The notes beneath the pieces were generated by a model. That model made no database searches. It was given only the letters and a program-made list of their open reading frames with translations, and was not told the origin of the DNA. Of a DNA stretch of 61,105 bases, positions 4,264-60,446 are shown in pieces. Source of the stretch: an uncultured Candidatus Saccharibacteria bacterium (GTDB lineage: Bacteria; Patescibacteriota; UBA1384; VFKW01); the NCBI GenBank assembly GCA_964482785.1, contig CAYZYR010000001.1, forward strand, positions 1-61,105. The letters run 5' to 3'. A program made the position numbers and the translations under genes. Positions within the stretch are counted from its first letter, which is position 1. Each line of letters opens with the position of its first letter.

Positions 4264-4772
4264 CACTTAATCCAACTATTACTAGTGGCGTGGACTATCT
4301 CTTCGCCATATCCGTTTACGGGTTTAGGCGCTAGGCGCTTAGTCTCTGAACCTTCCCATAAAATGGGCTTGGCTGCGGATTACCCTTTGTCTGCCATCCA
4401 TTAGGGCTTCCCGTCAATTCACCTAGTTTTCACTCCGACGTTTCCATCGAAGGCTGCATAGAGTGTATTTCTCGGTGGCAATTCGAACAGAGTAAAACGC
4501 ATTTATCTAATTCTGTTTTAGCACTTTCTCAAGATCTGGTATATCCTTTTAAAGAAATACCGAAATCTTTACCAGATAAATAATGGAAATCAAGCGCTTC
4601 CATACATTTATTATAGCCACAGATGTTACACTTACCGCCTTTGTACTTGATAGCATTTTCTTTCAAGATTTTTTGTCTTGTTTTCACTGCTTTTATTAAA
4701 TACTCTCGGCAGTCGGCATATTTTCTTTGATCAATACTCATATAATAATTATATCAGATTGATAAATTCTCT
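4264..4772 (-). ncRNA. group I (IC3-like, tRNA-type) self-splicing intron carrying an HNH ORF
   Basis: - The 5' exon ends in U, which can pair with the guide GCAGCC (rc 4452-4457).
- AAUCCGCAGCCAAGCC is present (rc 4366-4381).
- UCAGAGACUA is present (rc 4340-4349).
- AAACGGAUAUGG is present.
- The terminal residue is G (rc 4264). Confidence 0.8.
4430..4741 (-). pseudogene. intron-encoded HNH homing endonuclease with an in-frame TGA
   Basis: The ORF 4529-4741 ends ...CNICGYNKCMEALDFHYLSGKDFGISLKGYTRS-TGA. The same frame continues ESAKTELDKCVLLCSNCHREIHS..., which completes the HNH motif, to the stop at 4430-4432. Confidence 0.7.
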
Positions 4773-4956
4773 ACAGCCACCCGCTCTACCATTGAGCTAT
4801 CGCGGAATATATATTGTTAAGTTTCCGCCACCCCATCAACTTCTGTGGCGGGCACGGAATAAAAAAGTACCTTTTCAAAGTGCATCAATATTTTAACATC
4901 TAACCAGTTGTCTGTAAAGATGTTTTACTGTGCAATGGCTACGATTGGGGACCGCT

Positions 4957-5817
4957 ATGAATTCATCAGAAGCAAGAGCAATTATTTCAAAACCAAACAA
5001 TTTGGAAAATTTTAAGCAATCGATAAAAAAAGACAGCCTAAATTCTCTCTACATCCTCGCCGACTTCGACCGGACTTTAACCAGAGCCTATTTTGAGGAC
5101 GAATTTATCCCTTCTGTCATTTCAATTTTAAGAAACGGCGGCTTCTTAACTCAAAAATATGCCGACCAAGCCCACGCCCTTTTTAATAAATATCACCCCA
5201 TTGGAATTGATCCCAAAATCCCCGAGTCGGACAAAAAACAAGCTATGTATGAATGGTGGATCACCCATTTCGACCTCCTCATCGACTCCAGTTTAAATAA
5301 AAAAGATATCGTCGAAGTGATAAAATCAAGTAAAATCCAGCTTCGCTATGGTGCCCAAACATTCTTCCAATTCCTCCACACTAAAAATATCCCCCTCATC
5401 ATCCTTTCTTCCGCCACACTCGGCACCGAATCAATCGGTCTCTTTTTAGAAAAAGAAGGTGTCTTAACCAATAATATTCATATTATCTCCAACTCTTTTG
5501 AATGGGATGATAATGGCTTCGCCGAACAAATCCGTGAACCGATCATCCACACTCTAAACAAAAACTAAATTCATCTCGAAGAAATGCCTTTCTATGATCA
5601 AATATCTACTCGTCGTAATGTCTTGTTAGTCGGAGATAGATTATCAGACAACAAAATGATCGAGGGGCAAGATCATAATAATATTTTAAAAATCAGTTTC
5701 TACAATGAAAAAACACCAACTCGTCTAAATGACTATCAAGAAATTTTTGATGTCGTCATAACAGGCGACGGTCCGCTCGATTTTTTAAATAACTTGCTCC
5801 AAGAATTCGATAAATAA
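4957..5817 (+). pseudogene. eukaryote-type pyrimidine 5'-nucleotidase (UMPH-1/NT5C3-like HAD) with an in-frame TAA
   Basis: - Motif I is ADFDRTLT and motif IV is LLVGDRLSD.
- The two track ORFs (4930-5568 and 5584-5817) are in the same frame, separated by TAA 5566-5568.
- The stretch across the stop aligns without a gap to my recollection of NT5C3 (IHVFNKHDG...NIILLGD). Confidence 0.7.
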
Positions 5818-5886
5818 CTTTTAGTTTCGACTTTTATCTGTTATTGTATTTATATAATAGTAGTAGCTGCAATTCGAAGGAGGGGA

Positions 5887-6459
5887 ATGTCTCGAAAACC
5901 AAATATCAAAATTGGCGTTTCTGGTTCGGCCACAAACAACTGCGCTCCAGGCGCCTATAAAAAATCGCGCCAAGTCGGTCAAGCTATAGCCAAACAAGGC
6001 GCCGTTTGCGTAACAGGGGATACTACCGGTGTCCCTCTTTATGCCGCCAGAGGATCACATTCGGCCGGAGGCATCACAGTCGGGATTTCTCCCGCCCATA
6101 GCCAAGAAGATCACGAGCGCCGCTATCGCCTTCCCTTAAACGACATGGATCTTATCATCTACACCGGTTTTGCTTATTCCGGTCGCAACCTATTATTTAT
6201 CCGATCTTGCGACGCCGTTGTTTTCATTTGCGGCCGCATCGGCACTTTAAACGAATTCACCATCGCCTTCGAAGACAAAAAACCGATCGGTATCCTTACC
6301 AAAACAGGTGGCATTACCGAGGAAATAGACAATATCCTTGACGTTGCCCAGCGCGGCCGCAAAAAAATCGTTTTTGATGACAATCCAGACCGCTTAATAA
6401 AAAAATTAATAGAATTAGTAAAACAAGATCACAGAGAAAAATATCACTCTAAAGATTAG
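5887..6459 (+). CDS. TIGR00725/LOG-family (SLOG) Rossmann-fold nucleotide-binding protein
   Basis: IGVSGSA...VTGDTTGVPLYAARGSHSAGGITVGISPA is the pattern typical of LOG / lysine-decarboxylase-like proteins. RBS is AGGAGGGG. Confidence 0.7.
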   Translation: MSRKPNIKIGVSGSATNNCAPGAYKKSRQVGQAIAKQGAVCVTGDTTGVPLYAARGSHSAGGITVGISPAHSQEDHERRYRLPLNDMDLIIYTGFAYSGRNLLFIRSCDAVVFICGRIGTLNEFTIAFEDKKPIGILTKTGGITEEIDNILDVAQRGRKKIVFDDNPDRLIKKLIELVKQDHREKYHSKD

Positions 6460-6470
6460 ATCGGAGTGTC

Positions 6471-7838
6471 ATGAAATTAAAATTCTACGGTGCTGTAAGT
6501 GAAGTCACTGGCTCTAATATATTGGTAGAAACTGAACAATCCCGCTTTTTGGTAGATTGTGGTGTTTTCCAAGGCCGGAAAATGGTCGAAGATCGAAATT
6601 ACGAACCTTTCCCCTATAACGCTCAAAGTATAAAAGCGGTTATTTTAACTCATGCTCATCTCGATCATTGTGGCCGTCTGCCTAAGCTCTATCACGCCGG
6701 CTTCAGAGGTAAAATCTACTCAACCGCTGCCACCAGAGATCTCGCTATAATGTCTCTGACTGACAGTGCCGAAATTATCGAGGAAGAGGCCTCAGAAGAT
6801 GGCCGTCTGCCTTATTTTACTCAAGACGATGTCAATCATCTTGCCCCGCTATTTGAATCAATCAACTATGGTGAAATCGTTGAAAAAATTCCCGGTGTCA
6901 AATTTCGCCTGAGGGAAGCTGGACACATTCTCGGTTCGGCTTCAATAGAAGTATGGGCAGACGGCCAAAAAGCCGTCTTCTCCGGCGATCTTGGCAATCA
7001 TCCAGTTCCCATACTCAGAGAACCCGACAAAATCGACGAGGCCGATATTGTTGTTATGGAGGGCACTTACGGTGATGCCTTTCATGAAAACCTTCAAAAT
7101 CGCAGTAAATATCTCAAAGACGCCATTCATTATATTACCGGACGCAATGGCGTTTTAATGATTCCCTGTTTTGCCATCCAACGTACTCAGGAAATACTTT
7201 ACGAGTTAGATAAGTTAATAATAGACAAACAAATAAAGTCTGATATCCCCATCTTTGTCGACAGCCCGCTTGCCATAGAAGCAACCGAGATTTTCGGTCG
7301 TTATCCCAATCTCTACGATCAGGAAGCTAAGCACATCATGCAAACAAGTGGTGATTTTCTCCATTTTAAAAATCTAAAGTTCACACCTAAAGTCGAAGAT
7401 TCCAAGTCAATCAATTTCGTAGATCCTCCTAAAATCGTTATCGCCGGTAGCGGCATGATTACCGCCGGTCGCATCACTCATCATCTAAGGAGATATATTT
7501 CAGATCCTAATAGCTATCTCCTTATCGTTGGTTATCAAGTAGAAGACTCGACCGGAAGACAGTTAGCAGACGGCTTGCGTCGTATTCATCTTTTTAGAGA
7601 AAACCACATTGTTTGTGCCCAAGTCGAGGTTGCCAGTTGTTTCTCCGCTCATGCAGACCAGAAACAGCTACTTAAATGGCTCGGCCACATCAAAGGTGCT
7701 AAGCAAGTCATCCTCAATCACGGGGAGGCCACCAAATTAACCAGTTTATCACAAGTTATCCACAGTCAGCTCAATATAAATGTCGAAGTCCCATCGACAC
7801 TTGGCCAAGCTTATGACTTTTCCACAGTTTCTGTGTAA
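6471..7838 (+). CDS. MBL-fold beta-CASP ribonuclease (CPSF/RNase J-like)
   Basis: The HAHLDHCGRLP (HxHxDH) motif and the 455-aa length match the MBL + beta-CASP + C-terminal His architecture. Confidence 0.8.
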   Translation: MKLKFYGAVSEVTGSNILVETEQSRFLVDCGVFQGRKMVEDRNYEPFPYNAQSIKAVILTHAHLDHCGRLPKLYHAGFRGKIYSTAATRDLAIMSLTDSAEIIEEEASEDGRLPYFTQDDVNHLAPLFESINYGEIVEKIPGVKFRLREAGHILGSASIEVWADGQKAVFSGDLGNHPVPILREPDKIDEADIVVMEGTYGDAFHENLQNRSKYLKDAIHYITGRNGVLMIPCFAIQRTQEILYELDKLIIDKQIKSDIPIFVDSPLAIEATEIFGRYPNLYDQEAKHIMQTSGDFLHFKNLKFTPKVEDSKSINFVDPPKIVIAGSGMITAGRITHHLRRYISDPNSYLLIVGYQVEDSTGRQLADGLRRIHLFRENHIVCAQVEVASCFSAHADQKQLLKWLGHIKGAKQVILNHGEATKLTSLSQVIHSQLNINVEVPSTLGQAYDFSTVSV

Positions 7839-7864
7839 AAGCTAAATTTAAAAAACAAACGTTA

Positions 7865-7895
7865 AAAATAGTCGGATCTCTCCGACTATTTTATT
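7865..7895 (+). terminator. rho-independent terminator
   Basis: AAAATAGTCGGA-TCTC-TCCGACTATTTT followed by a T-rich run. Confidence 0.65.
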
Positions 7896-8018
7896 TAATA
7901 AAAAGCCTTATCCAACACATTTCTTATCGCAAACCGTTTCTCCATTCACATCATCTTTTAACTATAAAACCACAGTCAATAATAACTAGACATTAAACCT
8001 GTAAACATTTCCTTGCAA

Positions 8019-8058
8019 TATACTCCCCAGTAGTATATTGTGGAAAGCGGGGAGTATA
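8019..8058 (+). promoter_or_regulatory. candidate CsoR-family operator overlapping the promoter
   Basis: TATACTCCCC (8019-8028) and GGGGAGTATA (8049-8058) form a 10-bp inverted repeat. An inner palindrome ATATACT-N7-AGTATAT is also present, and TTGCAA lies at 8013-8018. Confidence 0.45.
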
Positions 8059-8137
8059 AATAGTGGATAAAGTTTCTTCTTATTATCCCAAATACGCCTT
8101 ATCGACTGTCGGACGAAGTATTCATAAAGGATTGAAA

Positions 8138-8380
8138 ATGAACGATTCAACTAACAAAATAATCAGCCGCCTCCATCGCATAGAAGGTCAAGTAAGAGGT
8201 GTCGAAAATATGCTTAGAGAAAAAAAGAGTGTTCCACTCATCATCCAACAACTCGAAGCTGTCCGCTCTGCTACTACCCAAGCGGCCGCCTCCTTGCTTG
8301 AAGATACCGTTTTACAAGAGGGCTATCAGCTCTCTGATCAGGATGTCATAACTCTAAAAAGGATTATTAAAAAAATATAA
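8138..8380 (+). CDS. CsoR/RcnR/FrmR-family (DUF156) transcriptional repressor, Cys-less variant
   Basis: Contains RLHRIEGQVRGVENML. The ATG at 8138 has AAAGGA upstream; the track start GTG 8063 has no RBS. There is no Cys anywhere in the 80-aa product. Confidence 0.7.
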   Translation: MNDSTNKIISRLHRIEGQVRGVENMLREKKSVPLIIQQLEAVRSATTQAAASLLEDTVLQEGYQLSDQDVITLKRIIKKI

Positions 8381-8682
8381 ATTCAAAAAAGAAGAACCCT
8401 AGATCCTGTCTTATCCGCGAGCTTAAAGAAGAAATTAGCGTCGATGTTCCACCTAAAGATTTAACAAAATTTAGCATTTTTACTGCTAAAGCCTCTGGAC
8501 AAGAACAAAAAACCATCCAAATAACTGTCTATACTGTTAATAAATACTTTGGTCAAATATCTATAGATTCAGAAATTGAAGACATCAAATGGATCGATAG
8601 TCATACCAATAATATAAAAATCGACTCTATTTTCGGGCACGAAGTCATCCCACGATTGAAACAACTTGACCTAATAAATTAA
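8371..8682 (+). pseudogene. 5'-truncated NUDIX hydrolase remnant
   Basis: The frame is open with no start codon: ...KKKNPRSCLIRELKEEISVD... This covers the second half of the Nudix box (REUxEE) and the C-terminal domain. The N-terminal ~40 aa are missing, and the frame abuts the end of the preceding gene. Confidence 0.55.
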
Positions 8683-8806
8683 TCATCCAAAGTCGATAAA
8701 TCATATCTGTCATCGCAGATATCTCAAATTTATCTTATAAGAAATACTACCCTATAAATATTAGAATTATATATTTCAATATTTATAATTTTTGATTTTT
8801 AGCTTT

Positions 8807-10348
8807 TTATTTATGAATATAAACAGGCATTCCTACCACAGCCCAATCATAAAGCTCTTTCGCCTGGCCAGCTGCCAAGCGTACGCATCCATGTGATACC
8901 GCTTTTCCAATATCGCTGACCCCTTCTTTTTTCCCAGTTCTCATGTCGACTGGTAACTCATGAAATCCTTGCCACGCTCCCGATTTATCTTGCGCGAAAG
9001 CCATCCACCAAGGCATTATCCAAGGGAATTCTTTCCCAACTGAGGCTTTGTTTTTAATTTTAAATATCCCCTCGCGAGTTGGTGTCGATTTTTTACCAGA
9101 AGAGACTCCATAGGTCTTTACAAGATTTGCCCCTTCCCATAAATACATTTTCTGCTGACTAAGATTGACCTCGATGTATTTTCCTTCATACATCCCTGGC
9201 GTGAACGGAGGATCCACTGTCTTAGTAGCAAAAGATTTAACATCAACCTGTAAAGCTAGATTATAATTTTTATTCTCCACACTACTAGCACTATCCACTG
9301 CTACATTTTCCGCCGGAACCTCTGTTTGTGGCTGAGTCGGCTTTATTTGATAAGTTCCTTCTAAAATAGAAACAATATCATTAACCGTTTTTTCTTTAGT
9401 TAAAGCTCGCCCATCCTTTCCTTCTTGCAAAACACTTCCATCTTTCGATGATAATTGTTTCTCTCGTGGTAGAATGTCGATCTTTTTAGCAATACTAGCT
9501 ACATATTTTGCAATATCATCTTTTTTTAGATTTGCTTTTATTACCCCGCCCTTATAATCAAAGCTAAACCATTTAAGAATATCTCTTCGTTCTAAAGTGT
9601 ATTTTTTATTCTCGAATAATAAAATAATTTTCTTGTCCGATGTCTGTTCTGCCATTTGTTTAGCCTGTGTAAAATCACTCTCTTTAATCTTTGCCTCAAG
9701 GATAGTAGACGGTAGGTTGACAGCAATATTACCATCCCAATTTCCGTTCTTTATTCGACTATTCAAACTTGAATATATTAAATCAGTAACTTTTTCCTTG
9801 TCTACTCCCATTCCTGGCAATTCTTTATCAATAATAAGATTATCATTTTCCAATCGGATTTTTGCATCCACCGGTTCCTTATTAACTTGAGTTATTATCT
9901 CACTCAATTTAACATCAACCTTATTGCGATTTAATCTAAAAGAGATCTTTTCGTTATACTGTTTTCCTTGTAAATAGTCGTAAGCCAAGATAAATGAGTC
10001 TTCGACAAAATTCCCACTATTCTGCTCGCTGTAAAGATTATCAAATGCACTTATCCAACTATATCTTAGCCCTAAGTCTTTAATCGGCAATTCAAATTTT
10101 TTATCGGCAATATCTAAAACTATTTTTTTATTCGTTATATTACCTATTTCATGTTCCAAAATTTTCTTCGACTCGCCGTACTGTTTTCCAGACAGATTTA
10201 TCCCTGCAAAAATCGTACCAGGCCTAAATCTATCTTTATAAAAATACCCAAGTACCATCGGAATAGTCACTGTTAAAATAGCCGCTATAACAATAAAATA
10301 TGCGACCCCGATTCCTATTCGCTTTATTTTAGGATTTCTAAAATTCAA
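8807..10348 (-). CDS. L,D-transpeptidase (YkuD domain) with long N-terminal extracytoplasmic region
   Basis: C-terminal catalytic motif HELPV...SHGCVRL. There is an N-terminal TM anchor. TTG start with GGAG upstream. Confidence 0.8.
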   Translation of the reverse strand: MNFRNPKIKRIGIGVAYFIVIAAILTVTIPMVLGYFYKDRFRPGTIFAGINLSGKQYGESKKILEHEIGNITNKKIVLDIADKKFELPIKDLGLRYSWISAFDNLYSEQNSGNFVEDSFILAYDYLQGKQYNEKISFRLNRNKVDVKLSEIITQVNKEPVDAKIRLENDNLIIDKELPGMGVDKEKVTDLIYSSLNSRIKNGNWDGNIAVNLPSTILEAKIKESDFTQAKQMAEQTSDKKIILLFENKKYTLERRDILKWFSFDYKGGVIKANLKKDDIAKYVASIAKKIDILPREKQLSSKDGSVLQEGKDGRALTKEKTVNDIVSILEGTYQIKPTQPQTEVPAENVAVDSASSVENKNYNLALQVDVKSFATKTVDPPFTPGMYEGKYIEVNLSQQKMYLWEGANLVKTYGVSSGKKSTPTREGIFKIKNKASVGKEFPWIMPWWMAFAQDKSGAWQGFHELPVDMRTGKKEGVSDIGKAVSHGCVRLAAGQAKELYDWAVVGMPVYIHK

Positions 10349-10525
10349 AAAAACTCCAAAATTTTCCGTTACATTAATATTTTAAATTTTGTCATTAATC
10401 TCGTCAATATAGATCTGGTCAAATATTAAGTTTTATGATAATATTATCTTATCTGTCTCTGTAAGTCACTTTTATTCCCCAGTCAAGGCCACTAAGCCAT
10501 CAGCTGTCAATTTATTATATACTAC

Positions 10526-10563
10526 GGGCGTGTAGCTCGCAGGTCGCAGAGCGCTTCTCTTAT
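10526..10563 (+). pseudogene. truncated copy of the tRNA-Ile(UAU) 5' half (positions 1-36)
   Basis: GGGCGTGTAGCTC-GCAGGTCGCA-GAGCGCTTCTCTTAT is identical to the downstream tRNA except for the D-loop. No T arm or 3' acceptor follows. CGCTTCTCTT (10552-10561) pairs with AAGAGAAGCG (10606-10615). Confidence 0.6.
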
Positions 10564-10661
10564 TACAAGATACATAATAACCAATCACTAGGCAAAAAGC
10601 GTAACAAGAGAAGCGGGATTGAGAAAAACCTTAAAAATTAAATAAAGCTTGTTTATTTTAC

Positions 10662-10734
10662 GGGCGTGTAGCTCAGCGGTTAGAGCGCTTCTCTTATAAG
10701 GAAGATGTCGATGGTTCAAATCCATCCACGCCCA
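10662..10734 (+). tRNA. tRNA-Ile(UAU)
   Basis: GGGCGTG TA GCTC AGCGGTTA GAGC G CTTCT CTTATAA GGAAG ATGTC GATGG TTCAAAT CCATC CACGCCC A. CCA is not encoded. A hairpin ATTTGCC-TCTTGC-GGCAAAT lies downstream. Confidence 0.85.
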
Positions 10735-10804
10735 CACAAATTTGCCTCTTGCGGCAAATAATCCCCACATTGACGAGTGTTCATAGCTGGCTTAGTGTGG
10801 AAGT

Positions 10805-11043
10805 ATGGAACAAGAATCTAAAATGATAATTGAAGATTTGGCTGGAATTGCTGCCCAATCATTCACTAATTTAGAGGTTAGTATTGATAAGCGTTTTGAT
10901 CAAGTTGATCGAAGGTTAGATATCTTGTGGAGCAAGGCCAGCTTGATATTAAACTACGCTTAGATAATACGGCTCATAAATTTGAACTCAAGGATCTTGA
11001 AAAACGGGTGGGCTCATTAGAAAATAAAGCAAAGTTCGCCTAA
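10805..11043 (+). pseudogene. small coiled-coil protein gene, apparently frameshifted
   Basis: MEQESKMIIEDLAGIAAQSFTNLEVSIDKRFDQVDRRLDI... stops at 10961-10963. A second frame continues ...VEQGQLDIKLRLDNTAHKFELKDLEKRVGSLENKAKFA to 11043. Together they read as one heptad-rich protein. Confidence 0.4.
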
Positions 11044-11553
11044 TTGTTTATAGAGTACTCAAATATTTCTTCTGTTTTAAGCGCTAAATTTTATATTAAA
11101 CCTTTGATGTCCATATACTTTTCAGATTGAGTTAGTTCTAATAATTGTTCAAAGATCCTCCCCTCGGGGCCACCAAATAAAATTTTTGCTAAAATTTGAA
11201 TTATTGAACGTCGAGCAAGGCGAGACGGGACATTACAATTGCTCTGGAAATTCAGGGCTTAATTTTATGGTATTAAATTGTATTCAGGAATTTTTTCAAA
11301 ATATTTTCGTTCTTCGTTAAGTTAAATACCACCATAAGATATTTCTCCGGCAATTCGTTTATTTCTTACAGAATTACAGCAACAGGCAACTCATTTGCCA
11401 ATCTGAAATGATGCTGTACCATGTTAAAACTAGTCGCACAAACAAGATGACTTTAACTGAGACAGTCGCCTCTATTAATTATAGTCAGTTTTAACTTCGC
11501 TTTTGCAAAAGGAACAGCAATCTAAAAAAGGGGTACTGTACAGTTTTTATATC

Positions 11554-11793
11554 TCATGGTCTATACTGATCCATGATATCTTCAATTATTTTTGGTTTAT
11601 ACTTGGGATAATTTTGGGAGATATACTCGTCAATCATTTCTTGGCCCCCAAACGCGCGACAAGCCTTATCAATGATTGTTCGGTCTATTTTGAAATCTTG
11701 GCCAAATTTTTGTTTTTGGATTTGAAAAAAGTTATCCATGTCAGCATTAAATACCTCTTTAGATAATGGCTGATTGAGATCACATTCTGACAT
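11554..11793 (-). CDS. small hypothetical protein
   Basis: 79-aa ORF with a good RBS (AAAGGAGAAAT-ATG on the minus strand). It overlaps an antisense plus-strand ORF that lacks these signals. Confidence 0.55.
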   Translation of the reverse strand: MSECDLNQPLSKEVFNADMDNFFQIQKQKFGQDFKIDRTIIDKACRAFGGQEMIDEYISQNYPKYKPKIIEDIMDQYRP

Positions 11794-12538
11794 ATTTCTC
11801 CTTTAATTATATTTTATAATTTTAAATATTAAAAAAAGATTAAGAGCATTAATATTTTTACCGAAATCATTTCCTAGTAAAACTCCAAGAAATCATCAAT
11901 TTAACTCCTCATAATTTTATTTTTTGTGAACCTTTAAATAACAACAACTTGCTAGACAAAAATTATCAAAATTTTTTTATATTCTTAAAGATATGTCGAC
12001 AAACTAATACACAAAAGAAAATCAACAAGCTGTTAGCAATCTCTTTCAACTAACAATTTCCGACAATTCCATTGTCTGGCTTGAAAAATAGATCTTTGAC
12101 AATACTACTAACGCTCCTTTAATAAAAACCCAAAATCTTCCCCCAATCCTCAACCAAAAAGATTTTTTCGCAAAATTGAAACAATAATTAAATCAACATC
12201 CAAAAGGTGAGTGCCTTTTCACAATTCTCTACAGAGCCTCAGATATTTTCCTCTTCTTTGACTATATATAGAAAACAACTTTCCCAAAAGCCATTTTTAT
12301 ATTTTTCCACTACTATATATAGTATAGAGTCTAAGCAATCCTACTATTGACAAACTAAAAAACCATTATAAGATAACAACAGGCTATGGTGCTAGTCATC
12401 TTAGGTTAATTCTAGGGTTAAAAGTTTTGCACTATGGTTAAATATTAGAGTAATACTTGCGGAGGGGCCAGGTCGATTTATAAGCCTGTTAAGTAATAAC
12501 TCCGCTCGTTAATAAATTAATATACAGGAGGTCTTTGC

Positions 12539-33699: not shown

Positions 33700-33988
33700 A
33701 ATACTTTTTACCTCGCCAAAGCAATATGTATGTCTCGTTTTTTAGCAAACAAATACAAAGTTATAACCATTAAAATCAATAGCGTCCAAACTTATCTGCC
33801 AAAGCACCTGACGGCACTTCAGCGATAAGTCCGATTGTAAACGCCAATCCATCAAGGATACCAACTCGCTGATCATTAATAAAAAGACGATAAAAATACA
33901 GCCACGCTGCACCGACAAACCATATATTTGTCACTGTTCGGTAAACAATATATTTTCTTGATAGCCATTGCTGATTCTCTGTCATCAT
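33700..33988 (-). pseudogene. remnant of an MFS transporter N-terminus
   Basis: The 70-aa ORF ends at ...GALADKFGRY (MFS motif A-like). Another frame continues LILMVITLYLFAKK... and then degenerates. Confidence 0.45.
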
Positions 33989-37555: not shown

Positions 37556-37885
37556 CTAGTCGAACAATCACAGTTCGTGCCTACAACTCTGATGACCGGT
37601 GGTAAACTGGAGGAGACCAATTTCATATTAAGGAATATATCTCTGCCGGATAATTCCATCGCTGTTCCCTAGAAGCTCGCTTCCAAGTACTGGTTCGCAA
37701 GTGCAACATTACTTACTGCGATCGACGATGATCCCCAAGGCCTAAAGTCTCGCTACGATGTGAATTTTATCGGATACATTCAGCTCGGCGTCATCTCTGG
37801 CTTTGATGCCCACTAGTCTGCGTTGTTCCTCCTCTCTCCTCCCTAATTCGCTTAGTAAATGGACTATCCACAAGCGATCAAACTA

Positions 37886-49817: not shown

Positions 49818-50160
49818 TTATCTCACTCATTCTATCTGTTATTCTATATAAAATCTAAAATAATAACTTTTATAATCAGTCAACCACAGAAATTAAATCA
49901 TACTCCGGTCAAATGATTGGCCCAACCGCTAAGACAATTTTAACCTATAATTTATTCACAAAATGATTTAATTTTGAGTTGCATTATAACTTGCTAGGAG
50001 TAGAGATCATAGAAGGGTGGGGAGCGCGTACTAGCATCCCCATCCTCCTACATAAAAATAACCAAACATTTTTATTAAAATGAATTCCATGTGTCCTTGA
50101 ACCCAAAAAAACTGCAAGATCTCTTTTGTAAAAAATCTCTAATTCATTAATAAAAATATT

Positions 50161-50637: not shown

Positions 50638-50685
50638 TCCACTCCTTGTTCTAATTATTGCCGTGCCCTAAAAGGACATGGCAAT

Positions 50686-51060: not shown

Positions 51061-51069
51061 ATCTCCCAC

Positions 51070-51819
51070 TTAAGCCAATTTCTCCAAAATCTCATCTGAA
51101 ATATCAAAATTACTTGAAACCGATGTCACATCATCAAGATCTTCCAAGTTGCTCATCAATTTTAATATTTGAGCGGCCGTTTTTTCGTCCCCAACTGCAA
51201 TCATAGTTGTTGGTTCCCAAGACAAATTTACCTCGCTCGCTTCATATCCTGCTTCAGTCATCGCTTGTCGCACTTTATCAGTCTCCTTCACTTCTGCATA
51301 CACAGTCATCTCATTGCCCGCTACTTCCACATCTTTCGCCCCCGCTTCTATCGCTGCTAGCTCCGCCTCTTCTCCATCTTTGCCTTCCAGTGGAAAATTC
51401 AAAACACCTCGTTTTTTAAATTGATAAGCAACCGAACCGCTCTCTGCCAATTTACCGCCGATTTTATTAAAAACCGCTTTAACTTCAGCCGACGTCCGGT
51501 TGCGATTATCTGTTGCCGCTTCAATCAGCATTCCCGTCCCGCCCGGTCCATAAGCCTCATACATAATATCTTCAATCCGCGCTGTTCCTCCCTCGCCCGT
51601 TCCGCGCTTGATCGCCCGCTCAATATTTTCTTTTGGCATGTTGCCTTGCTTTGCCTTGTCAACCGCAATTCTTAACATAAAATTCATCGACGGATCGCCG
51701 CCTCCTTGTCTGGCCGCAATCGAGATCGTATTTGCCAGTCTCGTAAAAACGCTCGAACGCTTCGCATCCGCCGCCCCTTTAGCCCTTTTTATCGTAGCCC
51801 ATTTACTATGTCCACTCAT
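51070..51819 (-). CDS. yebC: YebC/PmpR-family DNA-binding transcriptional regulator
   Basis: MSGHSKWATIKRAKGAADAKRSSVFTRL... is the canonical YebC N-terminus. Confidence 0.93.
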   Translation of the reverse strand: MSGHSKWATIKRAKGAADAKRSSVFTRLANTISIAARQGGGDPSMNFMLRIAVDKAKQGNMPKENIERAIKRGTGEGGTARIEDIMYEAYGPGGTGMLIEAATDNRNRTSAEVKAVFNKIGGKLAESGSVAYQFKKRGVLNFPLEGKDGEEAELAAIEAGAKDVEVAGNEMTVYAEVKETDKVRQAMTEAGYEASEVNLSWEPTTMIAVGDEKTAAQILKLMSNLEDLDDVTSVSSNFDISDEILEKLA

Positions 51820-51947
51820 AATTTCTCCTTCTCCGCTGTCATTCCGGACCCTATCCGGAATCTACTCTATCGTCAGGCCGTGTAATTATTCTTCGAGTCT
51901 GTCGAGAAGTTAACCTTGTTCTCGCTCATTATACCATATCATCTCCC

Positions 51948-52068
51948 CTGACAAAAGCCCTCAAATCTGTTAACATTTTAACCATCTTGGGCTTATGCCC
52001 CGACCTGGCGAGATTTCAAAACATACATACCGTTTGCTTAATAGAGCAATAACGGCGAGGTCATTAAC
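51948..52068 (+). promoter_or_regulatory. second copy of the family-A promoter and leader
   Basis: CTGACAAAA...TAACAT...CTTGGGCTTATGCCCCGACCTGGCGAG..AAAACATAC...GGCGAGGTCATTAACAT aligns with 3350-3477. Confidence 0.5.
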
Positions 52069-52623
52069 ATATCGCGAAGGGTTCAAATAGAAAAGTTAGG
52101 AAAACTCTCCTATGATAACAGTCTAGTATCAAACAGCGATGAGTCCATCATCTTTTCTCTCAAGCTGTTTGCACCGATCAGATTATTGGAAGAACTTGTC
52201 TTGTCTATTAAAGCTGAACTGAAACGAAGAAATTCTTAGGATGAGCGACATCATTGCGCATGCCCATATTGCCCTGAAAGTGAACTAGTCATCCTGCTAT
52301 CTGATTATGATGAGGTATTTAACTGGGAGAAAAGTGATCGTCATCCGTGTTATTCTGCGAGAACACACTTACTGATTTTACGGTGCTTACCGCCTGATCT
52401 TCGGTTAGCTTTGAAAAGCCAGAAAATGTACGACATACGTGTATGGTTCGAACCGGCTGAGTTTGAAGAAAATGATCTATTAAACGGCGGGTTCGATATT
52501 GAGCTATATCTCTGGTTGGATGAAAAAATTAGAAAACCCGCCCGCTTACTTCACTCCTTCGCCTGCAAGCTCAACAAATGGCTGGCTCAGGCCCGCCATC
52601 AGCTCGCTCAATCATCTTCCTAG
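52069..52623 (+). pseudogene. decayed paralog of 3478-4023 (start ATG->ATA, in-frame TAG)
   Basis: One frame reads ISRRVQIEKLGKLSYD... (compare MARIRKLGELDYPD), has TAG at 52237-52239, and then continues to ...FACKLNKWLAQARHQLAQSSS. Only the last 70 codons appear as an ORF in the track. Confidence 0.65.
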
Positions 52624-52640
52624 TCCGCATCTAACCTATA

Positions 52641-52671
52641 AAGCGGGAGTATCAAAGCCCCCGCTTTTTTC
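52641..52671 (+). terminator. rho-independent terminator
   Basis: AGCGGG-N12-CCCGCT followed by TTTTTTC. Confidence 0.65.
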
Positions 52672-52730
52672 TTACCCTTTTTCTTTTACCAATTTTCCAC
52701 ATTTTAAAACATACCTTTTAAAATGTATAA

Positions 52731-53579
52731 TTATTTCACTACTTTAAAACTCATTCCATCGCTTTCAAACCCAACTCTTCCGTCGTTGTCTGTTCTAAAT
52801 ACTTTTACCCCATTGTTAAAAAGTAAATCCAGCACCGATTTCTTCGGATGACCATATCTATTTTTCTTTCCAACCGAGATTACCGCTATATTAGGTCGTA
52901 TCATCTCCAGCCATTTCTCATTTAATCCGGTCGCGCTTCCATGATGCGGCACTTTTAATAATTGCGATGAATAAATATTTTGCAATCCCTCTATCTCTTC
53001 AACCTGCCTCTTTCCTAAATCGCCGGTCACTAGCATGCTCGTTTTACCATAACTCCATCTTGTCACAACATTCGCATTGTGCTGATCTTCGGGAGCCTTA
53101 CCCTGAAAATCGCCAATCGGATACAAAACCTCCGCTCGAACTTGTTCAAACTCTCTTGTGTATCCCGCTTTCACCACTGAGGTTCTAATCTTCTTGCTCT
53201 TGATGATCTTTAAAAGATTAATATAATCATCACTTGTATGAATAGCCCCTGAAAGCCAGATTTCATCAACTTCATATCTTTCTAAAACCGGCAGCAATCC
53301 CGCGATATGATCACTGTGATTATGAGAAATAACTACCAAATTTATCTCCCTATCGTAAGGCTTCATCACCTGGCCTAGCTCTGTAAGTACCCTATCATTC
53401 GGTCCCCCGTCTATCAACGCGTCCTTCCCATTTGGCATTTCAATATAAGTCGCATCTCCTTGCCCCACATTCAAAAACCAAACTCTAAACCCTGGTTCAC
53501 TGTGCGAAAAAACCAAAGACCAGATTACTCCCGCCATTATACATAACGCAATCAAAAGGCTTTTATTGAGCGACCGCAT
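52731..53579 (-). CDS. comEC: ComEC C-terminal metallo-beta-lactamase domain protein (separate ORF)
   Basis: An N-terminal TM helix, then FLNVGQGDATYIE...LIDGG...ISHNHSDHIAG (HxHxDH). It overlaps the upstream ORF by 17-56 nt in a different frame. Confidence 0.8.
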   Translation of the reverse strand: MRSLNKSLLIALCIMAGVIWSLVFSHSEPGFRVWFLNVGQGDATYIEMPNGKDALIDGGPNDRVLTELGQVMKPYDREINLVVISHNHSDHIAGLLPVLERYEVDEIWLSGAIHTSDDYINLLKIIKSKKIRTSVVKAGYTREFEQVRAEVLYPIGDFQGKAPEDQHNANVVTRWSYGKTSMLVTGDLGKRQVEEIEGLQNIYSSQLLKVPHHGSATGLNEKWLEMIRPNIAVISVGKKNRYGHPKKSVLDLLFNNGVKVFRTDNDGRVGFESDGMSFKVVK

Positions 53580-54729
53580 CTCTTTTCCCAACCTTTCTAT
53601 AAATAATCCAGCATACAATCCCTAAGTAAACAAAAATGACCCAACCATTATTTTTAATTTCCAAAGAAGCAAAAGGCAGTCCAGCCAAAATCTCTACCAT
53701 CTTTATTATAATTTTCATCACAAATACAGTCGCCAGACTCAAAACTATCCCCAAGGGCAAAAATATTATCCCTCCTATCAATCCAATAAAACCAACCAAC
53801 ATCGCCAAAGGAATAAATGGCAGCACTAAAGTATTGGAAATAGGGGAGACCAAAGAAACATCCGCAAAATGATACAAAATAATCGGTACCGTAAATATCT
53901 GCGCCGCCAAAGTCGTCGCCAATGCCTCCTTCAAGATTTTTGGCCACTTCCGCATAAATTTTAATTTATCCAGCCAACTCTCTACTTCTGTCGAGAAAAA
54001 TATCAATCCAACCGTCGCCGCAAAAGATAACTGAAAACCAATATCCCCCAATAATCCCGGCTCTACCAACACCATCAGCCACCCCGTAAAAACTAAAGCG
54101 TTGATCGAATACGCCTTTCTGCCTAACAATTTTCCAAAGACGACCAGTCCACCCATCAGTCCCGCTCTGACCACCGAAGCCGATCCTCCTGCGATCAGCA
54201 CAAAAAGCAATATCGCCAACAGTGTCAAATAATTTCTCATCCTAAAACCCAAAGACGAAAACAGCCTGTATATCAAATTAATTAATATTGTAATATTATA
54301 CCCGGAAACAGCCACTATGTGCATCAGCCCCGTCGTCTTAAACATACTTTTAAGCTCATATCCAAAATCCCTCGAACCCAAAAGCAAACCACACAAAAAC
54401 CCACTGTAAGGCTCCGGCAAAATTCTCCCAATAATAGACCCGGTATAGTCTCTCATTTGCCCCATTTTAAAAACCAAGTACTCAAATCCTGCTACTTGAA
54501 TAGCTACTTTCTCGCCTAAATATAAACTATAGCCAATCCCCGCGAACAAACCCACTCCGCCAACCGCCAAATATTTTTCAACTTTACCTCTAGCAAAATT
54601 AAAATAAATAGCAAGCAACAATAAAATTACTATCCCAATAGTCGAAAAATTTCCAGCCAAATAAGTTTTCAGTCCGCACCCCGCCCCAAAACAACAACAA
54701 AACACTAAAAATAACCTTGACTTGCTCAT
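53563..54729 (-). CDS. comEC: ComEC/Rec2 competence (DNA channel) domain protein
   Basis: A polytopic membrane protein with ..GLLLGSRD...TGLMHIVAVSGYNITIL.. (competence-domain signature). The N-terminal OB/DUF4131 region is very short. Confidence 0.8.
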   Translation of the reverse strand: MSKSRLFLVFCCCFGAGCGLKTYLAGNFSTIGIVILLLLAIYFNFARGKVEKYLAVGGVGLFAGIGYSLYLGEKVAIQVAGFEYLVFKMGQMRDYTGSIIGRILPEPYSGFLCGLLLGSRDFGYELKSMFKTTGLMHIVAVSGYNITILINLIYRLFSSLGFRMRNYLTLLAILLFVLIAGGSASVVRAGLMGGLVVFGKLLGRKAYSINALVFTGWLMVLVEPGLLGDIGFQLSFAATVGLIFFSTEVESWLDKLKFMRKWPKILKEALATTLAAQIFTVPIILYHFADVSLVSPISNTLVLPFIPLAMLVGFIGLIGGIIFLPLGIVLSLATVFVMKIIIKMVEILAGLPFASLEIKNNGWVIFVYLGIVCWIIYRKVGKRDAVAQ

Positions 54730-54775
54730 AAGAACATTCTAACATAAGAACAGAAAGCATGCCGAAAGGAGCAAA

Positions 54776-55351
54776 ATGACAAAAACACCAAAAGAAGAAA
54801 AGAAAACATCTGCTGAAGCTAAAAAGCTACAAAAAGAAAACGAAACTCTACACAAAGCTACCGAAAAGCAAGAGAAAGAAATCGAAGATCTCAAAAAACA
54901 TCTTGCTTATCTATCGGCCGATTTTGACAATTACTGCAAGCGAACAGAGAAAGAAAAAAACCAGGCTTCTTCCGTTGCCAATTCCGAATTAGTCATCAGT
55001 ATTTTCCCTATTTTAGACAATTTCCGTCGTGCCACAGAACACACTCCCAATATATCTTTAGACAACGAAACAGCTCCCCAGCTCTCTGAGGACGATTTAA
55101 GAAAAATCAATGCCTATTTTGAAGGAGTACGCCAGATCGAAAAGCAATTAGAAGAAGTGCTCATCAATACAGGTTTAACGCGGGTAGAAACGATCAACAA
55201 ACCTTTTGACCCAAGGACAATGGAGGCTATTGCCTATGAACCCCATCCCGAGCTAGGCGAAGATATTGTCATTGATGAACTCGAGGGTGGCTACTGCTTA
55301 AACGATCAAGTCATTAGACCAGCCAAAGTTCGCGTTTCATCAGGTCCATAG
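54776..55351 (+). CDS. grpE: nucleotide exchange factor GrpE
   Basis: A coiled-coil N-terminus, LSADFDNYCKRTEKE, and a beta-domain C-terminus. RBS is AAAGGAG. Confidence 0.9.
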   Translation: MTKTPKEEKKTSAEAKKLQKENETLHKATEKQEKEIEDLKKHLAYLSADFDNYCKRTEKEKNQASSVANSELVISIFPILDNFRRATEHTPNISLDNETAPQLSEDDLRKINAYFEGVRQIEKQLEEVLINTGLTRVETINKPFDPRTMEAIAYEPHPELGEDIVIDELEGGYCLNDQVIRPAKVRVSSGP

Positions 55352-55367
55352 TCTCCCTAAGGAGGGG

Positions 55368-56218
55368 ATGCATCTAAATAAATTTTTCAAATCTGATGTA
55401 AAAAACTTTCGGTATCTTTTGTTATCTTTCATTTTTTCATTATCCATTATCCCCGTTTTCGCCGCTGAAGAAAATAAACAATCGCCCTATTGTTTTACCG
55501 ATACCCATCTGGTCTGGCTTGAAACCAATCCCGAAAAGAAAATAATGATAAACGATCTCGAAACTGGTCTCAACACCCCTGCTCTCGTCTTTTCCAAAAA
55601 TGACCTTATCCCAACCGATTTATCCTGCAATGGCGATATCGTTTCCTGGCAAAGTATCTCCAGTCTAGACAACCAAAGCCATCAAGTCATTAAATATCTA
55701 AACCTTACCGACAAAACTGTAAAAAAGTTTGATCTCTCTTCTTCCGCCTACAAAAAACCTTTTATCAAACTACTTTCTCTCAAGAAATTAACCTTTCCTT
55801 GAAGAATGAAAACAATCGATCTAGGTTTTAACCCTTTTTCCATTCACGCCAAAAATAGGGTCGAATACTCCGGCCTCACAAACCCCAACCCCAAGCTAAC
55901 CGTAACCCTTTCTCCCAGTGTAAGTCAAAAAATAACCGCCGGCAAAAACGGCACATGGTCTTATCTTTTAGATTCCAGCACTCTCAAACTTATCCATGAA
56001 GAATATTCTCCTCCATCATCGTCGCCGACCCCTTCACCTGCTTACAATCAGATCCTCTTGACCTAGCTAAATTTACCTTAAGAAAATATCTCTCTATAAC
56101 CACTATTATCGAAGAAGATTATTACAATCCAATTAATCGCAACAGTATTTTTTTGATCAGTTTAGATATTTTCCTCGTCATCGCCTTAATCGTCGAAATG
56201 ACCCTACGTTATCGATAA
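55368..56218 (+). pseudogene. secreted/membrane protein gene disrupted by an in-frame TGA and a frameshift
   Basis: The track ORFs 55368-55802 and 55806-56066 share a frame and are separated only by TGA 55800-55802. After ~56040 a different frame continues ...SDPLDLAKFTLRKYLSITTIIEEDYYNPINRNSIFLISLDIFLVIALIVEMTLRYR, a C-terminal TM segment, to 56218. Confidence 0.5.
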
Positions 56219-56354
56219 GTTTTAGGTTTGCCCATCTTTAGTAAAAAGAAAAAACATACCAATTCTGACCAGTCTATCGCTCCTCAGGATACCTCCCAAA
56301 CCCTCAAAAACTAAAATAATTCCCCAGAACAGACACTCTTTGGCAGAAACCCTC

Positions 56355-56383
56355 TTGACAAAATGTAAAGTGACCTTTACATT
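56355..56383 (+). promoter_or_regulatory. dnaK promoter with a perfect palindromic operator
   Basis: TTGACA (56355-56360) is followed by AATGTAAAG-TGAC-CTTTACATT (56362-56383). This covers the spacer and the putative -10 TACATT. Confidence 0.5.
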
Positions 56384-56493
56384 ATTACTATAGATATTTA
56401 AATAACTAATTCCCACAATTTCACCAAACCCCATTAAGTTATAAAGTTGTTGGTAATAAATTGCCGGTTATTAGTTTAAAGAAAGGAGTTCCT

Positions 56494-58398
56494 ATGCCAA
56501 AAACAATTGGAATCGATCTCGGAACGACCAATTCGGTAGTAGCTGTTATGGAGGGTGGCAAGCCTAAAGTTATCCCATCAACCGAAGGCTCAAATACTAT
56601 CCCATCTATCGTCGCCGTCGCTAAGAACGGCGAGAGATTGGTTGGCCAACTGGCAAAACGCCAAGCTGTCACCAATCCAGAAAACACCATTTTTTCAGTT
56701 AAGCGCCTGATCGGACACCGCTTTGAAGATGAAGAAGTACAGACCGATTTAAAATTAATGCCCTATAAAATCGTCAAAGCCAACGGCGGTGTAAACGTCA
56801 TTATGGGCGGTAAAGAATATTCTCCTCAAGAGATCTCTGCTTTTATCCTTCAAAAATTGAAAGCAGATGCTGAAGCCTATCTTGGCGAAACCATTACCGA
56901 CGCTGTTATCACTGTTCCGGCCTATTTCAATGATTCCGAACGTCAAGCCACTAAGGATGCTGGTAAAATCGCTGGCTTAAATGTCCAGCGTATCGTCAAC
57001 GAGCCTACCGCCTCAGCTATGGCCTATGGTCTCGACAAGAAGAAAGAAGGCAAAATCGCTGTCTATGACTTTGGCGGCGGAACTTTTGACATCACTATTC
57101 TTGAGGTCGGTGATGGTGTTTTCGAAGTAAAATCCACCAACGGCGACACTCATCTTGGTGGCGATGATCTCGACCAAAAAATCATGGACTGGATTATCGA
57201 TGAATTCAAAAAACAAGAAGGTCAAGATCTAAGAAATGAAAAAGCCGCCATCCAGCGTGTCAAAGAAGCTGCCGAAAAGGCCAAAATCGAACTTTCTAAC
57301 TCTCAAGAAACCGAAATAAATCTTCCATTTGTTACCGCCGATGCCAACGGTCCTAAACACTTGATAATGAAATTAACCCGCTCCAAACTTGAACAATTAA
57401 CAGAAAGTCTAATCAAAAAAACTGTCCCAATTTGCGAAGCCGCTATGAAAGACGCCGGCGTCTCCAAAAAAGACATCGACGAAGTCATTCTCGTCGGTGG
57501 CATGACTAGAATGCCTCTGATTCAAAAAACCGTTGAAGAAATCTTCGGCAAAGAACCTTCCAAAGGCGTCAATCCGGACGAAGTCGTCGGTCTTGGCGCC
57601 GCCACTCTAGGGGGAGTTCTAACCGGCGAGGTCAAAGATCTCCTGCTTCTTGACGTCACTCCGCTAACTCTTGGTATTGAAACTTTGGGTAGTGTCATGA
57701 CTCCGTTAATTGACAGAAATACCACCATCCCAACTTCTAAAAGTCAAATCTTTTCCACTGCCGTCGACAATCAAACCACTGTTGAAATTCACGTTCTCCA
57801 AGGTGAGAGGCCGATGGCCGGCGACAACCGGACTCTAGGCCGTTTTATCTTAGACGGTATTCCCCCTTCTCCTCGTGGCATTCCTCAGGTCGAGGTAACA
57901 TTTGACATTGATGCCAACGGTATTCTTCACGTTAAGGCTGTCGACAAAGCTACCGGCAAAGAACAAAAAATCACCATCACCTCTTCGAGCGGGCTTTCTG
58001 AAACTGAGATCGAAAGAATGCAAAAAGAAGCCGAATCCCACGCCGAAGAAGACAAAAAGAAAAAAGAAACTATCGAAGCACGTAACATCGCTGAAAATCT
58101 AGTTTACTCTACAGAAAAAACCTTAAAAGAAGCTGGCGACAAAATTACTCCCGAAATGAAAAAAGAAGTCGAGGATAAGGTCGCAAAAATCAAAGAAATC
58201 ATTGCCAAATCAGATGCCACATCCGATGAGATCAAATCTGCCAGTGATGAACTTTCCGAAGCTATTCAGAAAGTTGGTTCAGCTATGTACGAACAAGCCA
58301 AAAACCAGCAACCGCCGGAAGAGTCGAAAGAAGAATCAAAAACCGAAGAGCCAAAAGAAGAATCAAAAGGTTCTGACGAAGGTGAGCAGATCAAATAA
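56494..58398 (+). CDS. dnaK: molecular chaperone DnaK (Hsp70)
   Basis: [22 protein letters not shown] and the EEVD-less acidic tail. ATG 56494 follows AAAGGAG; the track start 56461 is upstream. Confidence 0.97.
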
Positions 58399-58420
58399 GT
58401 CCATAATCCAAAAAACTATT

Positions 58421-58448
58421 TTGTCATCTGCTCGTCATTATGTATAAT
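58421..58448 (+). promoter_or_regulatory. candidate promoter for dnaJ
   Basis: TTGTCA, a 16-nt spacer, then TATAAT preceded by TG. It lies ~185 nt upstream of the dnaJ ATG, and the leader contains the hairpin GGCGGAG-N7-CTCCGCC (58582-58602). Confidence 0.45.
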
Positions 58449-58635
58449 ACAATTCTTCTCAAGCAAAGAGCGCAGTAAGTCAGTCCATCACAGGATCTAA
58501 TAAAACGTTCAGACACACAAATCAGAATTTTTTGAACTTACAGGTAAGCTTCTTGAGAACTACAAGGATTTATGATATGTTGGCGGAGTAATTTTCTCCG
58601 CCTCATACATAAGTTTTGGTGGTAAGGTAATAAGA

Positions 58636-59265
58636 ATGAAAAAAGATTATTATGAAGTGCTCGGCGTCTCAAAAGGTGCCTCGCCCGAAGAAATCAAAAA
58701 AGCATACAGAAAACTTGCCCTGCAATATCATCCTGATCGCGCCGGCAAGTCCGCTGAAGAAAAATTCAAAGAAGTAAATGAAGCCTATCAAGTCTTATCC
58801 GACCCTCAAAAGAGAGCCGCTTATGATCAATTTGGCCACGCTGGTGTCGGTGCTGGCGGCCCCAGCGGTTTCGGCAGAGCCGGAACCCAAGGTGGTTTTG
58901 GCGGCTCCGGTGGGGGCGGCTTTGATTTTTCAGGTGGCTTTGGTTTTGGTGGTGGTGGACTTGGCAGTATCTTCGAAGATCTGTTCGAAGGAGCTTTTTC
59001 CACTGTTCAAGCCGAAATGAATATTTCAATCACCCAAGCTGTCTTAGGAGATGAGATCGAATTTCAAACCCAAACTGGCGAAAAATTAAGACTAAAAATC
59101 CCTGCCGGAGTCCAAGACGGCTCTCAATTTAGATTTCGCGGACGCGGCGCTCAAACGCGCCGCGGCAGAGGTGACCTCGTCATCACTCTCAGCGTACAGA
59201 TCCCTAAACGCCTTACCAAAGAGCAAAAACGCCTCTACGAGCAACTCAGAAATCTCGAAAAATAA
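58636..59265 (+). CDS. dnaJ: short DnaJ-family co-chaperone (J domain + G/F region + one C-terminal domain, no zinc finger)
   Basis: KDYYEVLGV...YHPDR has the HPD motif. The G/F-rich stretch [23 protein letters not shown] follows. No CxxCxGxG repeats are present in the 209-aa product. Confidence 0.85.
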
Positions 59266-59341
59266 CATCTATTAAACTCATCGAAAAGAAATAATAGAAT
59301 ATAATTAATTATCAACTTCTTAACGCCTTAAGGAGGGATTT

Positions 59342-59419
59342 ATGGAATATGGGATTCTCATCTTCATTTTTTTCTTTTTTATTTTTCCCGGCATCAAACT
59401 ACTTTATCAATACGAATAA
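59342..59419 (+). CDS. candidate 25-aa hydrophobic microprotein
   Basis: MEYGILIFIFFFFIFPGIKLLYQYE, preceded by the strong RBS AAGGAGGG. Confidence 0.35.
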   Translation: MEYGILIFIFFFFIFPGIKLLYQYE

Positions 59420-59496
59420 GCTGTCGTCTTCACCTTAGAAAAATATTCCTCAACCAAACAATCCGGTCTGCGCTGGATCCCCCCTTTACCCGAACT

Positions 59497-59673
59497 ATGT
59501 GTAAAGTCGATATGAGAATTAAAACCGCCGAAATCACGGCCGTCTCTCCAGCCGCCATTACTTTACATATTCTCCAAACTATTCGCGACATCGCCTCGGA
59601 CCCTTCAGAAAAAATCGTCATTTTTGCCCCAACTGACACACAACAGACAATAAAATCACTCATAGGCAAATAA
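59497..59673 (+). CDS. candidate small protein (53-58 aa), coupled to the downstream gene
   Basis: ...MRIKTAEITAVSPAAITLHILQTIRDIASDPSEKIVIFAPTDTQQTIKSLIGK. Its TAA overlaps the next ATG (TAATG at 59671-59675). There is no clear RBS. The competing minus-strand ORF 59430-59669 looks like an antisense artefact. Confidence 0.3.
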   Translation: MCKVDMRIKTAEITAVSPAAITLHILQTIRDIASDPSEKIVIFAPTDTQQTIKSLIGK

Positions 59674-60446
59674 TGCCTAAAGATTATCCTCTCTCTGGCA
59701 ATCCTTCTCTCGGCGGCGTAGTCAGTTTTCTGCGAAATTCACAACAATCGCAGCCTCTTATCTATCGCAGCGACAATTATATTCTCCAAAGAAACAAACA
59801 TTACCTCCAAATTACCTTCAACTATGATTTATAGTTTGTTCATTCCATCCTGCCTCGCATTCCATTCAATGAAAGGATAATAATAGAGGCTGGGACTCCT
59901 TTTATTAAAAAGGAAGGTATGGCTGGAGTACGCGCCATTTCCTCGATCTGGCCCGGCAAAGTCGTCGCCGACATGGAAGTTTCCGATAGTGCTTTAGGTG
60001 AAGTCGAAATGGCCAGAGCCGTCGGCGCTACCGCTATCATCGTCGCCGGCCAAGCTCCCAAAGAAACACGAGACCTATTTATTGCTTCTTGTAAAACAAA
60101 TAAACTTATCCCAATGGTAGATATGATTGGCGTGAATGATCCCATTAAGGTTATTAGACAATTAAAAAGTCAGTCCAATGTCGTTATTCTCCACAAAGGC
60201 CGCAACGAAGAAACCGCTCGCGGCAAAGTGATCGAATACAGGCACGTTAAGCGCATCAAGTATAAATACGATATTATTATTTCAGTTGTTGGCGGTGTGG
60301 ATATCAAAGAAGCCTGCAACTCCGTTTTTAACGGCGCCAATATCATCGTTGCCAATCTTGTCCAATCCGGCGATCTCTGGGAAGGTATTCCAATAAATTC
60401 AAATATAGCTCAGCTAGCCAATCAATTTTTAACAAACATCGAATAA
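59673..60446 (+). pseudogene. 3-hexulose-6-phosphate synthase / OMP-decarboxylase-superfamily protein with an in-frame TAG
   Basis: The track ORF 59919-60446 begins in the middle of the conserved IIIEAGTPFIKKEG-MAGVRA...VADMEV region. The same frame is open back to ATG 59673 except for TAG 59832-59834 (..LQITFNYDL*FVHSILPRIPFNERIIIEAGTP..). Confidence 0.6.

Follow-up and report, generated by a model that had tools for sequence, protein, structure and literature searches.

Why should a short stretch of a bacterial genome hold several genes that appear whole except for one in-frame stop codon, and are such genes dead, misassembled or still translated? The question is raised by a 61,105-nucleotide contig (CAYZYR010000001.1, referred to here as the window) in assembly GCA_964482785.1 of an uncultured Candidatus Saccharibacteria bacterium. 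A first-pass annotation, made from the sequence alone, had described in it an unusual density of genes interrupted only by single stops, six in all and with each of the three stop codons represented. It is suggested here that four of the six stops are probably genuine and recent loss-of-function mutations in dispensable genes of a small genome of the candidate phyla radiation (CPR), and that they amount to ordinary early pseudogenisation. The genes that have been hit are the HNH homing endonuclease of a group I intron, a patchily distributed UMPH-1 pyrimidine 5'-nucleotidase, a paralogue of an orphan gene and a gene resembling the HPS / OMP-decarboxylase (HUMPS) family. The other two sites were not confirmed as gene interruptions.

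The window is the contig C1 of an 892-kb assembly (G000) of 38 contigs and ~40% GC, and makes up 6.8% of its sequence. The genomes of relatives range from 0.5 to 1.3 Mb, in the style of CPR/Patescibacteria. Two of the genomes used for comparison, G001 and G002, belong to the same family as G000 and none to the same genus. Homologues were sought in 162 genomes of the class, in a 5.8-billion-protein database, in Pfam and in Rfam, and tRNAs were detected with ARAGORN.

In the nucleotidase, the UMPH-1 domain runs directly across the stop, covering residues 49-292 of the joined frame with the stop at residue 213 (Pfam, E 6.5e-61). Four relatives have uninterrupted open reading frames (ORFs) at 41-47% identity, in which E or Q occupies the stop column, and ~180 homologues in the protein database are intact at ~282 aa. 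About 60 invariant columns are common to the window gene and its relatives on both sides of the stop, and every one of these residues has been retained. The TAA is a real interruption, dividing the gene into pieces of 203 and 77 aa, and the nucleotidase is the sole confirmed case with just one lesion. Its distribution is patchy, the gene being present in 4 of 40 relatives. The earlier description of genes interrupted only by single stops therefore holds for the nucleotidase but not for the HNH gene, the orphan-gene paralogue or the HPS-like gene, each of which bears a second lesion. What does stand is the claim that conserved motifs continue in register past the stop in the nucleotidase, HNH and HPS-like genes, as homologues of all three align straight across it.

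The HNH ORF is contained within a group I intron that lies in the anticodon loop of a tRNA-Asn(GUU) gene. The Rfam model RF00028 matches at 4272-4566 on the minus strand with 85 bits, and the two halves of the tRNA can be read in the flanks of the intron. When 4773-4806 is joined to 4226-4263, with 4264-4772 removed, ARAGORN reports a canonical tRNA-Asn(gtt), a gene that it overlooks unless the intron is taken out. No second tRNA-Asn was present among the 39 tRNAs that it detected in the whole assembly, and for this reason the intron is predicted, and expected, still to self-splice. The HNH ORF itself has homologues in 24 of the 162 class genomes, mostly as intact ORFs of ~107-110 aa, and is lacking in the same-family genomes G001 and G002. 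That its TGA interrupts a real gene is clear from the alignment, which continues across the stop: the codon replaces an invariant Trp, with TRSW in 11 of 11 aligned relatives. The catalytic motif, HH in all 11 of these relatives, reads HY here. Selenocysteine was considered at this TGA and ruled out, Trp being found in all homologues.

Inactivated copies of the HNH ORF are also found among the relatives, one of them (in G012) carrying a TAA and another (in G028) split in two pieces, and RF00028 adjoins the ORF in 6 of 11 relatives' loci searched. The window copy thus has the marks of a degenerating homing endonuclease, being embedded in an intron of a host gene and belonging to a sporadically distributed family with dead copies among intact ones. 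Such decay, in which the homing endonuclease gene degenerates and the ribozyme is retained by the host, is familiar, and it resembles the homing cycle of gain, degeneration and loss described by Goddard and Burt in its patchy intron-borne ORF, in its stop-bearing or split copies elsewhere, and in an only tRNA-Asn that would still need the ribozyme while the endonuclease decays. It differs from the classical introns of cyanobacterial and plastid tRNA-Leu(UAA) and tRNA-fMet in that the host gene is a tRNA-Asn(GUU) of a CPR bacterium.

The HPS-like gene has 488 homologues, most of them 221 aa long and 53-60% identical, which span all or nearly all (97-100%) of the joined 220-aa frame and confirm that its TAG interrupts a real gene. 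The stop is codon 18 of ~221, counted from the ATT at 59781-59783, and the alignment around it reads YLQI(A/T)FNYDL-stop-FV, with Ala at the stop column in the relatives. The start Met of the homologues aligns with this ATT, a second lesion, and no ATG, GTG or TTG was found near the start position. The GC skew is near zero both here and in the orphan-gene paralogue, against ~-0.2 in the backbone, a foreign-like composition. The HPS-like gene was likely acquired, as suggested by this composition and by its closest named homologues, which are of Chloroflexi type.

The interrupted paralogue is colinear with the orphan gene at 3478-4023 (these two form what is called here family-A), with leader elements and a C-terminal FA.KLNKWL motif in common, so that its TAG too falls within a real gene. 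An ATA at 52069-52071 stands where the intact copy has ATG, giving two lesions. The conserved leader blocks CTTGGG..GCCCCGACCTGG.GAG and AGGTCATTAACAT are found upstream of both coding regions (3330-4075; 51900-52660), and the family-A proteins are highly diverged despite the retention of these blocks.

The two remaining sites gave a different result. No homologue spans the TGA of the putative secreted protein: nothing significant crosses it in the 162 class genomes, where the sole crossing match is weak (residues 120-213, E 0.0015), and the frame has zero homologues in the 5.8-billion-protein database. An ATG begins one codon after the stop, and the frame may represent either two adjacent small genes or one ORFan pseudogene. 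The 74-codon frame with a TAG had no Pfam, paralogue or G002 match, and its reading as an interrupted gene was not supported. Coordinates of these features, and of in-frame stops elsewhere in the assembly, are collected in Table 1.

Table 1. Interrupted frames, host genes and remnants in the window (contig C1), followed by frames with in-frame stops on other contigs of G000.
Feature	Position	Strand	Lesion	Basis or remark
tRNA-Asn(GUU) gene	4226..4806	-		exon 1 4773-4806, exon 2 4226-4263
Group I intron, 509 nt, in anticodon loop of tRNA-Asn(GUU)	4264..4772	-		Rfam RF00028
HNH homing-endonuclease ORF, degenerating, 103 codons	4431..4741	-	in-frame TGA 4529-4531	intron-internal
UMPH-1 family pyrimidine 5'-nucleotidase	4957..5817	+	single TAA 5566-5568	Pfam and relatives
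NUDIX remnant	8371..8682	+	5'-truncated	Pfam PF00293, E 8.8e-5; match confined to positions 43-119 of 134
Possible MFS transporter N-terminal remnant (weak)	33776..33988	-		Pfam MFS_1, positions 26-61 of 347, E 0.03
74-codon frame	37592..37816	+	TAG 37670-37672	without support as gene
Family-A paralogue, pseudogene copy of orphan gene 3478-4023	52069..52623	+	TAG 52237-52239, ATA start position	
ORFan 'secreted protein' frame	55368..56066	+	TGA 55800-55802	without homologue
HPS / OMP-decarboxylase (HUMPS) family gene	59781..60446	+	TAG 59832-59834, ATT start position	
Big_5/peptidase-C39-like protein	C13:20915		in-frame stop	tblastn and Pfam
Conserved protein, ~435 aa	C13:25689		in-frame stop	targeted search; at least 9 intact relatives span it
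Member of multi-copy small secreted-protein family	C12:28152		in-frame stop	targeted search
Serine-type recombinase	C21:16424		in-frame stop	tblastn
GH1 glycosidase	C18:7413-8563		several in-frame stops, including C18:8246	tblastn and Pfam
Insertion sequence (IS) transposase remnant	C5:2198-2788		TAA at C5:2564	

Three explanations other than pseudogenisation were weighed, together with a more speculative one. That the dominant genes are in truth intact, and that the stops reflect errors of assembly or consensus or else variants of a minority strain, is distinctly unlikely. The assembly is a 38-contig metagenome-assembled genome (MAG), and internal-stop pseudogenes in public assemblies frequently stem from assembly error, above all where coverage is low (PMC11017572), a caution that is answered here only partly. 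Even so, contigs from an independent assembler (Logan) are 100% identical to the window over the sites at 4529, 5566, 55800 and 59832, and this makes an error specific to the consensus or assembler of the MAG unlikely. In two runs, SRR8925826 and SRR8925817, Logan contigs carry both nucleotidase pieces, each called as a gene of its own, and contigs of SRR8925826 also carry the N-terminal piece of the HNH ORF, the C-terminal piece of the HPS-like gene and a piece of the ORFan. Random base-call error, moreover, would not produce the second independent lesion seen in three of the genes, and other genes that were examined are without such interruptions. The possibility of assembly error, which had been put forward in the first-pass annotation, is weakened accordingly.

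Reassignment or ambiguity of a stop codon, of the kind seen in relatives among the CPR or Mollicutes that use code 25 or code 4, can be regarded as effectively refuted. UGA is recoded in some CPR lineages, and the HNH TGA does occupy an invariant Trp position; the Gracilibacteria and Absconditabacteria, members of the same superphylum, likewise have in-frame UGA within conserved genes (code 25, UGA = Gly). The present genome differs from these in that the interruptions comprise all three stop codons and not a single one, and in that the events are rare, affecting ~1% of genes. A search for suppressor tRNAs and for the release-factor genes prfA and prfB had been proposed along with the initial observation. 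It found RF1 (contig C6) and RF2 (contig C12) both intact, RF2 scoring 438.8 bits, above its curated cut-off, and no suppressor or stop-reading anticodon among the 39 tRNAs and the intron-split tRNA-Asn of the whole assembly. The tRNA-Trp occurs only with a CCA anticodon. Long ORFs end in TAA 382 times, in TAG 164 times and in TGA 107 times (~58, 25 and 16%). Since both release factors are intact, no tRNA reads a stop and all three stops terminate ordinary genes, G000 uses the standard code, and stop-codon recoding was rejected. The same release factors and tRNAs also count against leaky termination, in which near-cognate readthrough of TGA, TAG or TAA would leave the genes partly functional and conditionally expressed rather than dead. 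UGA-to-Trp readthrough is the commonest near-cognate kind in bacteria, and the HNH TGA sits at a Trp codon; the nucleotidase, with its single lesion and with all invariant residues kept on both sides of the stop, would suit this explanation as well. However, its stop is TAA followed by A, which is an efficient terminator, and three of the four genes are without a start codon or the catalytic His, so that readthrough would not rescue them. Leaky termination is in our view unlikely, and neither this reading, which had been offered earlier as an alternative, nor recoding gained support. A very improbable extension would be that a lineage of episymbiont type tolerates nonsense alleles because slow translation and low-level near-cognate readthrough would yield product in sufficient amount; single-stop genes such as the nucleotidase would then be dimmed rather than dead, and the local cluster would reflect hitch-hiking or a bottleneck in a digester population.

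Early pseudogenisation, which we prefer, is also consistent with the spectrum of the changes. Wherever the ancestral codon can be inferred, the lesion appears to have turned G/C into A/T. The HNH ORF shows the implied changes TGG to TGA and CAT to TAT, the family-A paralogue ATG to ATA, the HPS-like gene ATG to ATT, the nucleotidase GAA or CAA to TAA, and contig C18 TGG to TAG. Changes from G/C to A/T represent the general mutation bias of bacteria. Decay under AT-biased mutation had been the interpretation first offered, and both this spectrum and the accessory or mobile nature of the genes agree with it. Loss of function is suggested by the positions of the stops and by the second lesions, in which a start codon has been lost or the catalytic His has become Tyr. 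In such a process nonsense substitutions, often with loss of a start codon or catalytic residue, would inactivate dispensable accessory or mobile genes; the usual G/C-to-A/T bias would give rise to them, and relaxed selection on the genes that are hit would allow them to persist. Ribosomes would terminate at the stops under the standard code, and the genes would in consequence be early-stage pseudogenes, seen before indels or deletions erase them. A small effective population, as such organisms would have, probably helps. The further proposal that stops are created faster than indels was not demonstrated, truncated or apparently frameshifted remnants being about as common in the window as nonsense lesions.

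Several points weigh against pseudogenisation as the explanation, or limit it. The window, with its small share of the genome (6.8%), holds 4 of the at least 10 verified lesions, for which a hand estimate gives a nominal p of ~0.003. There is no genome of the same species in the databases from which the age of the lesions or a relaxation of selection might be measured; a search there for an uninterrupted version of the nucleotidase from this species found none, the nearest homologue being 52% identical. The Logan contigs give no allele frequencies, which means that a minority intact allele is possible, and they may share libraries with the MAG. Finally, the nucleotidase, with one lesion and its invariant residues all retained, could be expressed by rare readthrough.

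The clustering needs to be read with some care. Counted as 4 of 8 lesions in the window it gives p = 0.0012, but the comparison is confounded: the window was inspected visually, whereas the remainder of the genome went through a strict automated screen, which finds one in four of the real cases in the window. When uniform criteria are applied, 1 of 4 lesions falls within the window (p = 0.25). Across the whole of G000 at least 10 nonsense lesions were verified, ~1% of ~900 genes.

Comparison with G002 does not bear out the claim of an unusual density. G000 has 124, and G002 118, same-frame pairs of non-overlapping ORFs separated by one stop; in 42 and 29 of these, respectively, the next start is at least 10 codons away (nominal p 0.02 for this subset). 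A Pfam screen of these 42 far-start pairs, and of 47 near-start pairs without separate G002 orthologues, identified nearly all of them as ordinary gene junctions; a domain extended across the stop in three, namely the nucleotidase, C13:20915 (Big_5) and C18:8246 (GH1). Pfam searches with concatenated stop flanks miss short or ORFan cases, and the screen missed both the HPS-like gene and the known epimerase stop of G002. Scoring the flanks by codon usage was tried and rejected; its power to discriminate was too low, and of the six sites it picked up just one. For a matched control, G000 was compared with the complete sequence of G002 by reciprocal tblastn, using non-overlapping longest ORFs only; the unrestricted search was swamped by off-frame shadow ORFs, such as the conserved but spurious-looking frame at C7:34459. 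Ortholog-supported stops found in this way numbered 3-4 in G000 (C13:20915, C21:16424 and C18:8246) against 2-3 in G002 (RC3:875, RC10:78545 and, more weakly, RC12:229939). Coding density in the window (0.857) matches the mean of G000 (0.851); it is lower in contigs C2, C12 and C18, and 0.884 in G002.

Comparison with orthologues, another check proposed at the outset, found the nucleotidase, HNH and HPS-like genes intact in relatives, and stops in the genes of relatives too. On contig C10 of G002, at ~78545 (L046/L047), the orthologue of the window gene 2703-3266 bears an in-frame stop in a Ser column.

These lesions correspond to the 'internal stop' pseudogenes of the NCBI Prokaryotic Genome Annotation Pipeline (PGAP) and to early decay in host-associated bacteria of small population size, where point nonsense mutations likewise fall in conserved ORFs with intact homologues. 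The G/C-to-A/T spectrum, the accessory nature of the genes, and the truncated and frameshifted remnants alongside are further points of likeness. The differences are of scale and dating: ~1% of genes are verified here in place of the hundreds of pseudogenes in recently host-restricted bacteria, and there is no close sister genome by which to date the events. Nothing in this is new in kind; the observation is partly confirmed, the phenomenon is already known and current understanding is unchanged. Its value lies mainly in annotation: four ORF pairs in the window should be labelled pseudogenes and not pairs of short hypothetical proteins, and the standard code is the one to use in translating G000. 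The window may also offer a limited but clear view of how gene loss begins in a CPR genome, with G/C-to-A/T point lesions that would precede indels and a homing endonuclease that appears to be decaying within an intron that the cell would still need for its only tRNA-Asn.

Remnants of other kinds occur in the window as well. The truncated NUDIX gene noted earlier was confirmed by a partial match to its profile. For the supposed MFS remnant, a short N-terminal part of the MFS_1 profile was indeed matched, although weakly. In the spacer at 59360-59700 (+), between a DnaJ-like gene and the HPS-like gene, weak matches in two frames to one 257-aa ORF of G002 (RC10:56742-57512, E 2.6e-4) suggest another gene remnant, possibly frameshifted.

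Two further observations concern the window and its genome more generally. The tRNA-Ile at 10662-10735 (+) has the anticodon UAU, G000 has just two CAU tRNAs and a search for TilS gave no match; AUA is therefore apparently decoded without lysidine. The plus-strand GC skew is strongly negative (-0.15 to -0.34) from ~5 kb onwards across the window (1-61105), and near zero over its initial 5 kb and within several cassettes richer in GC.

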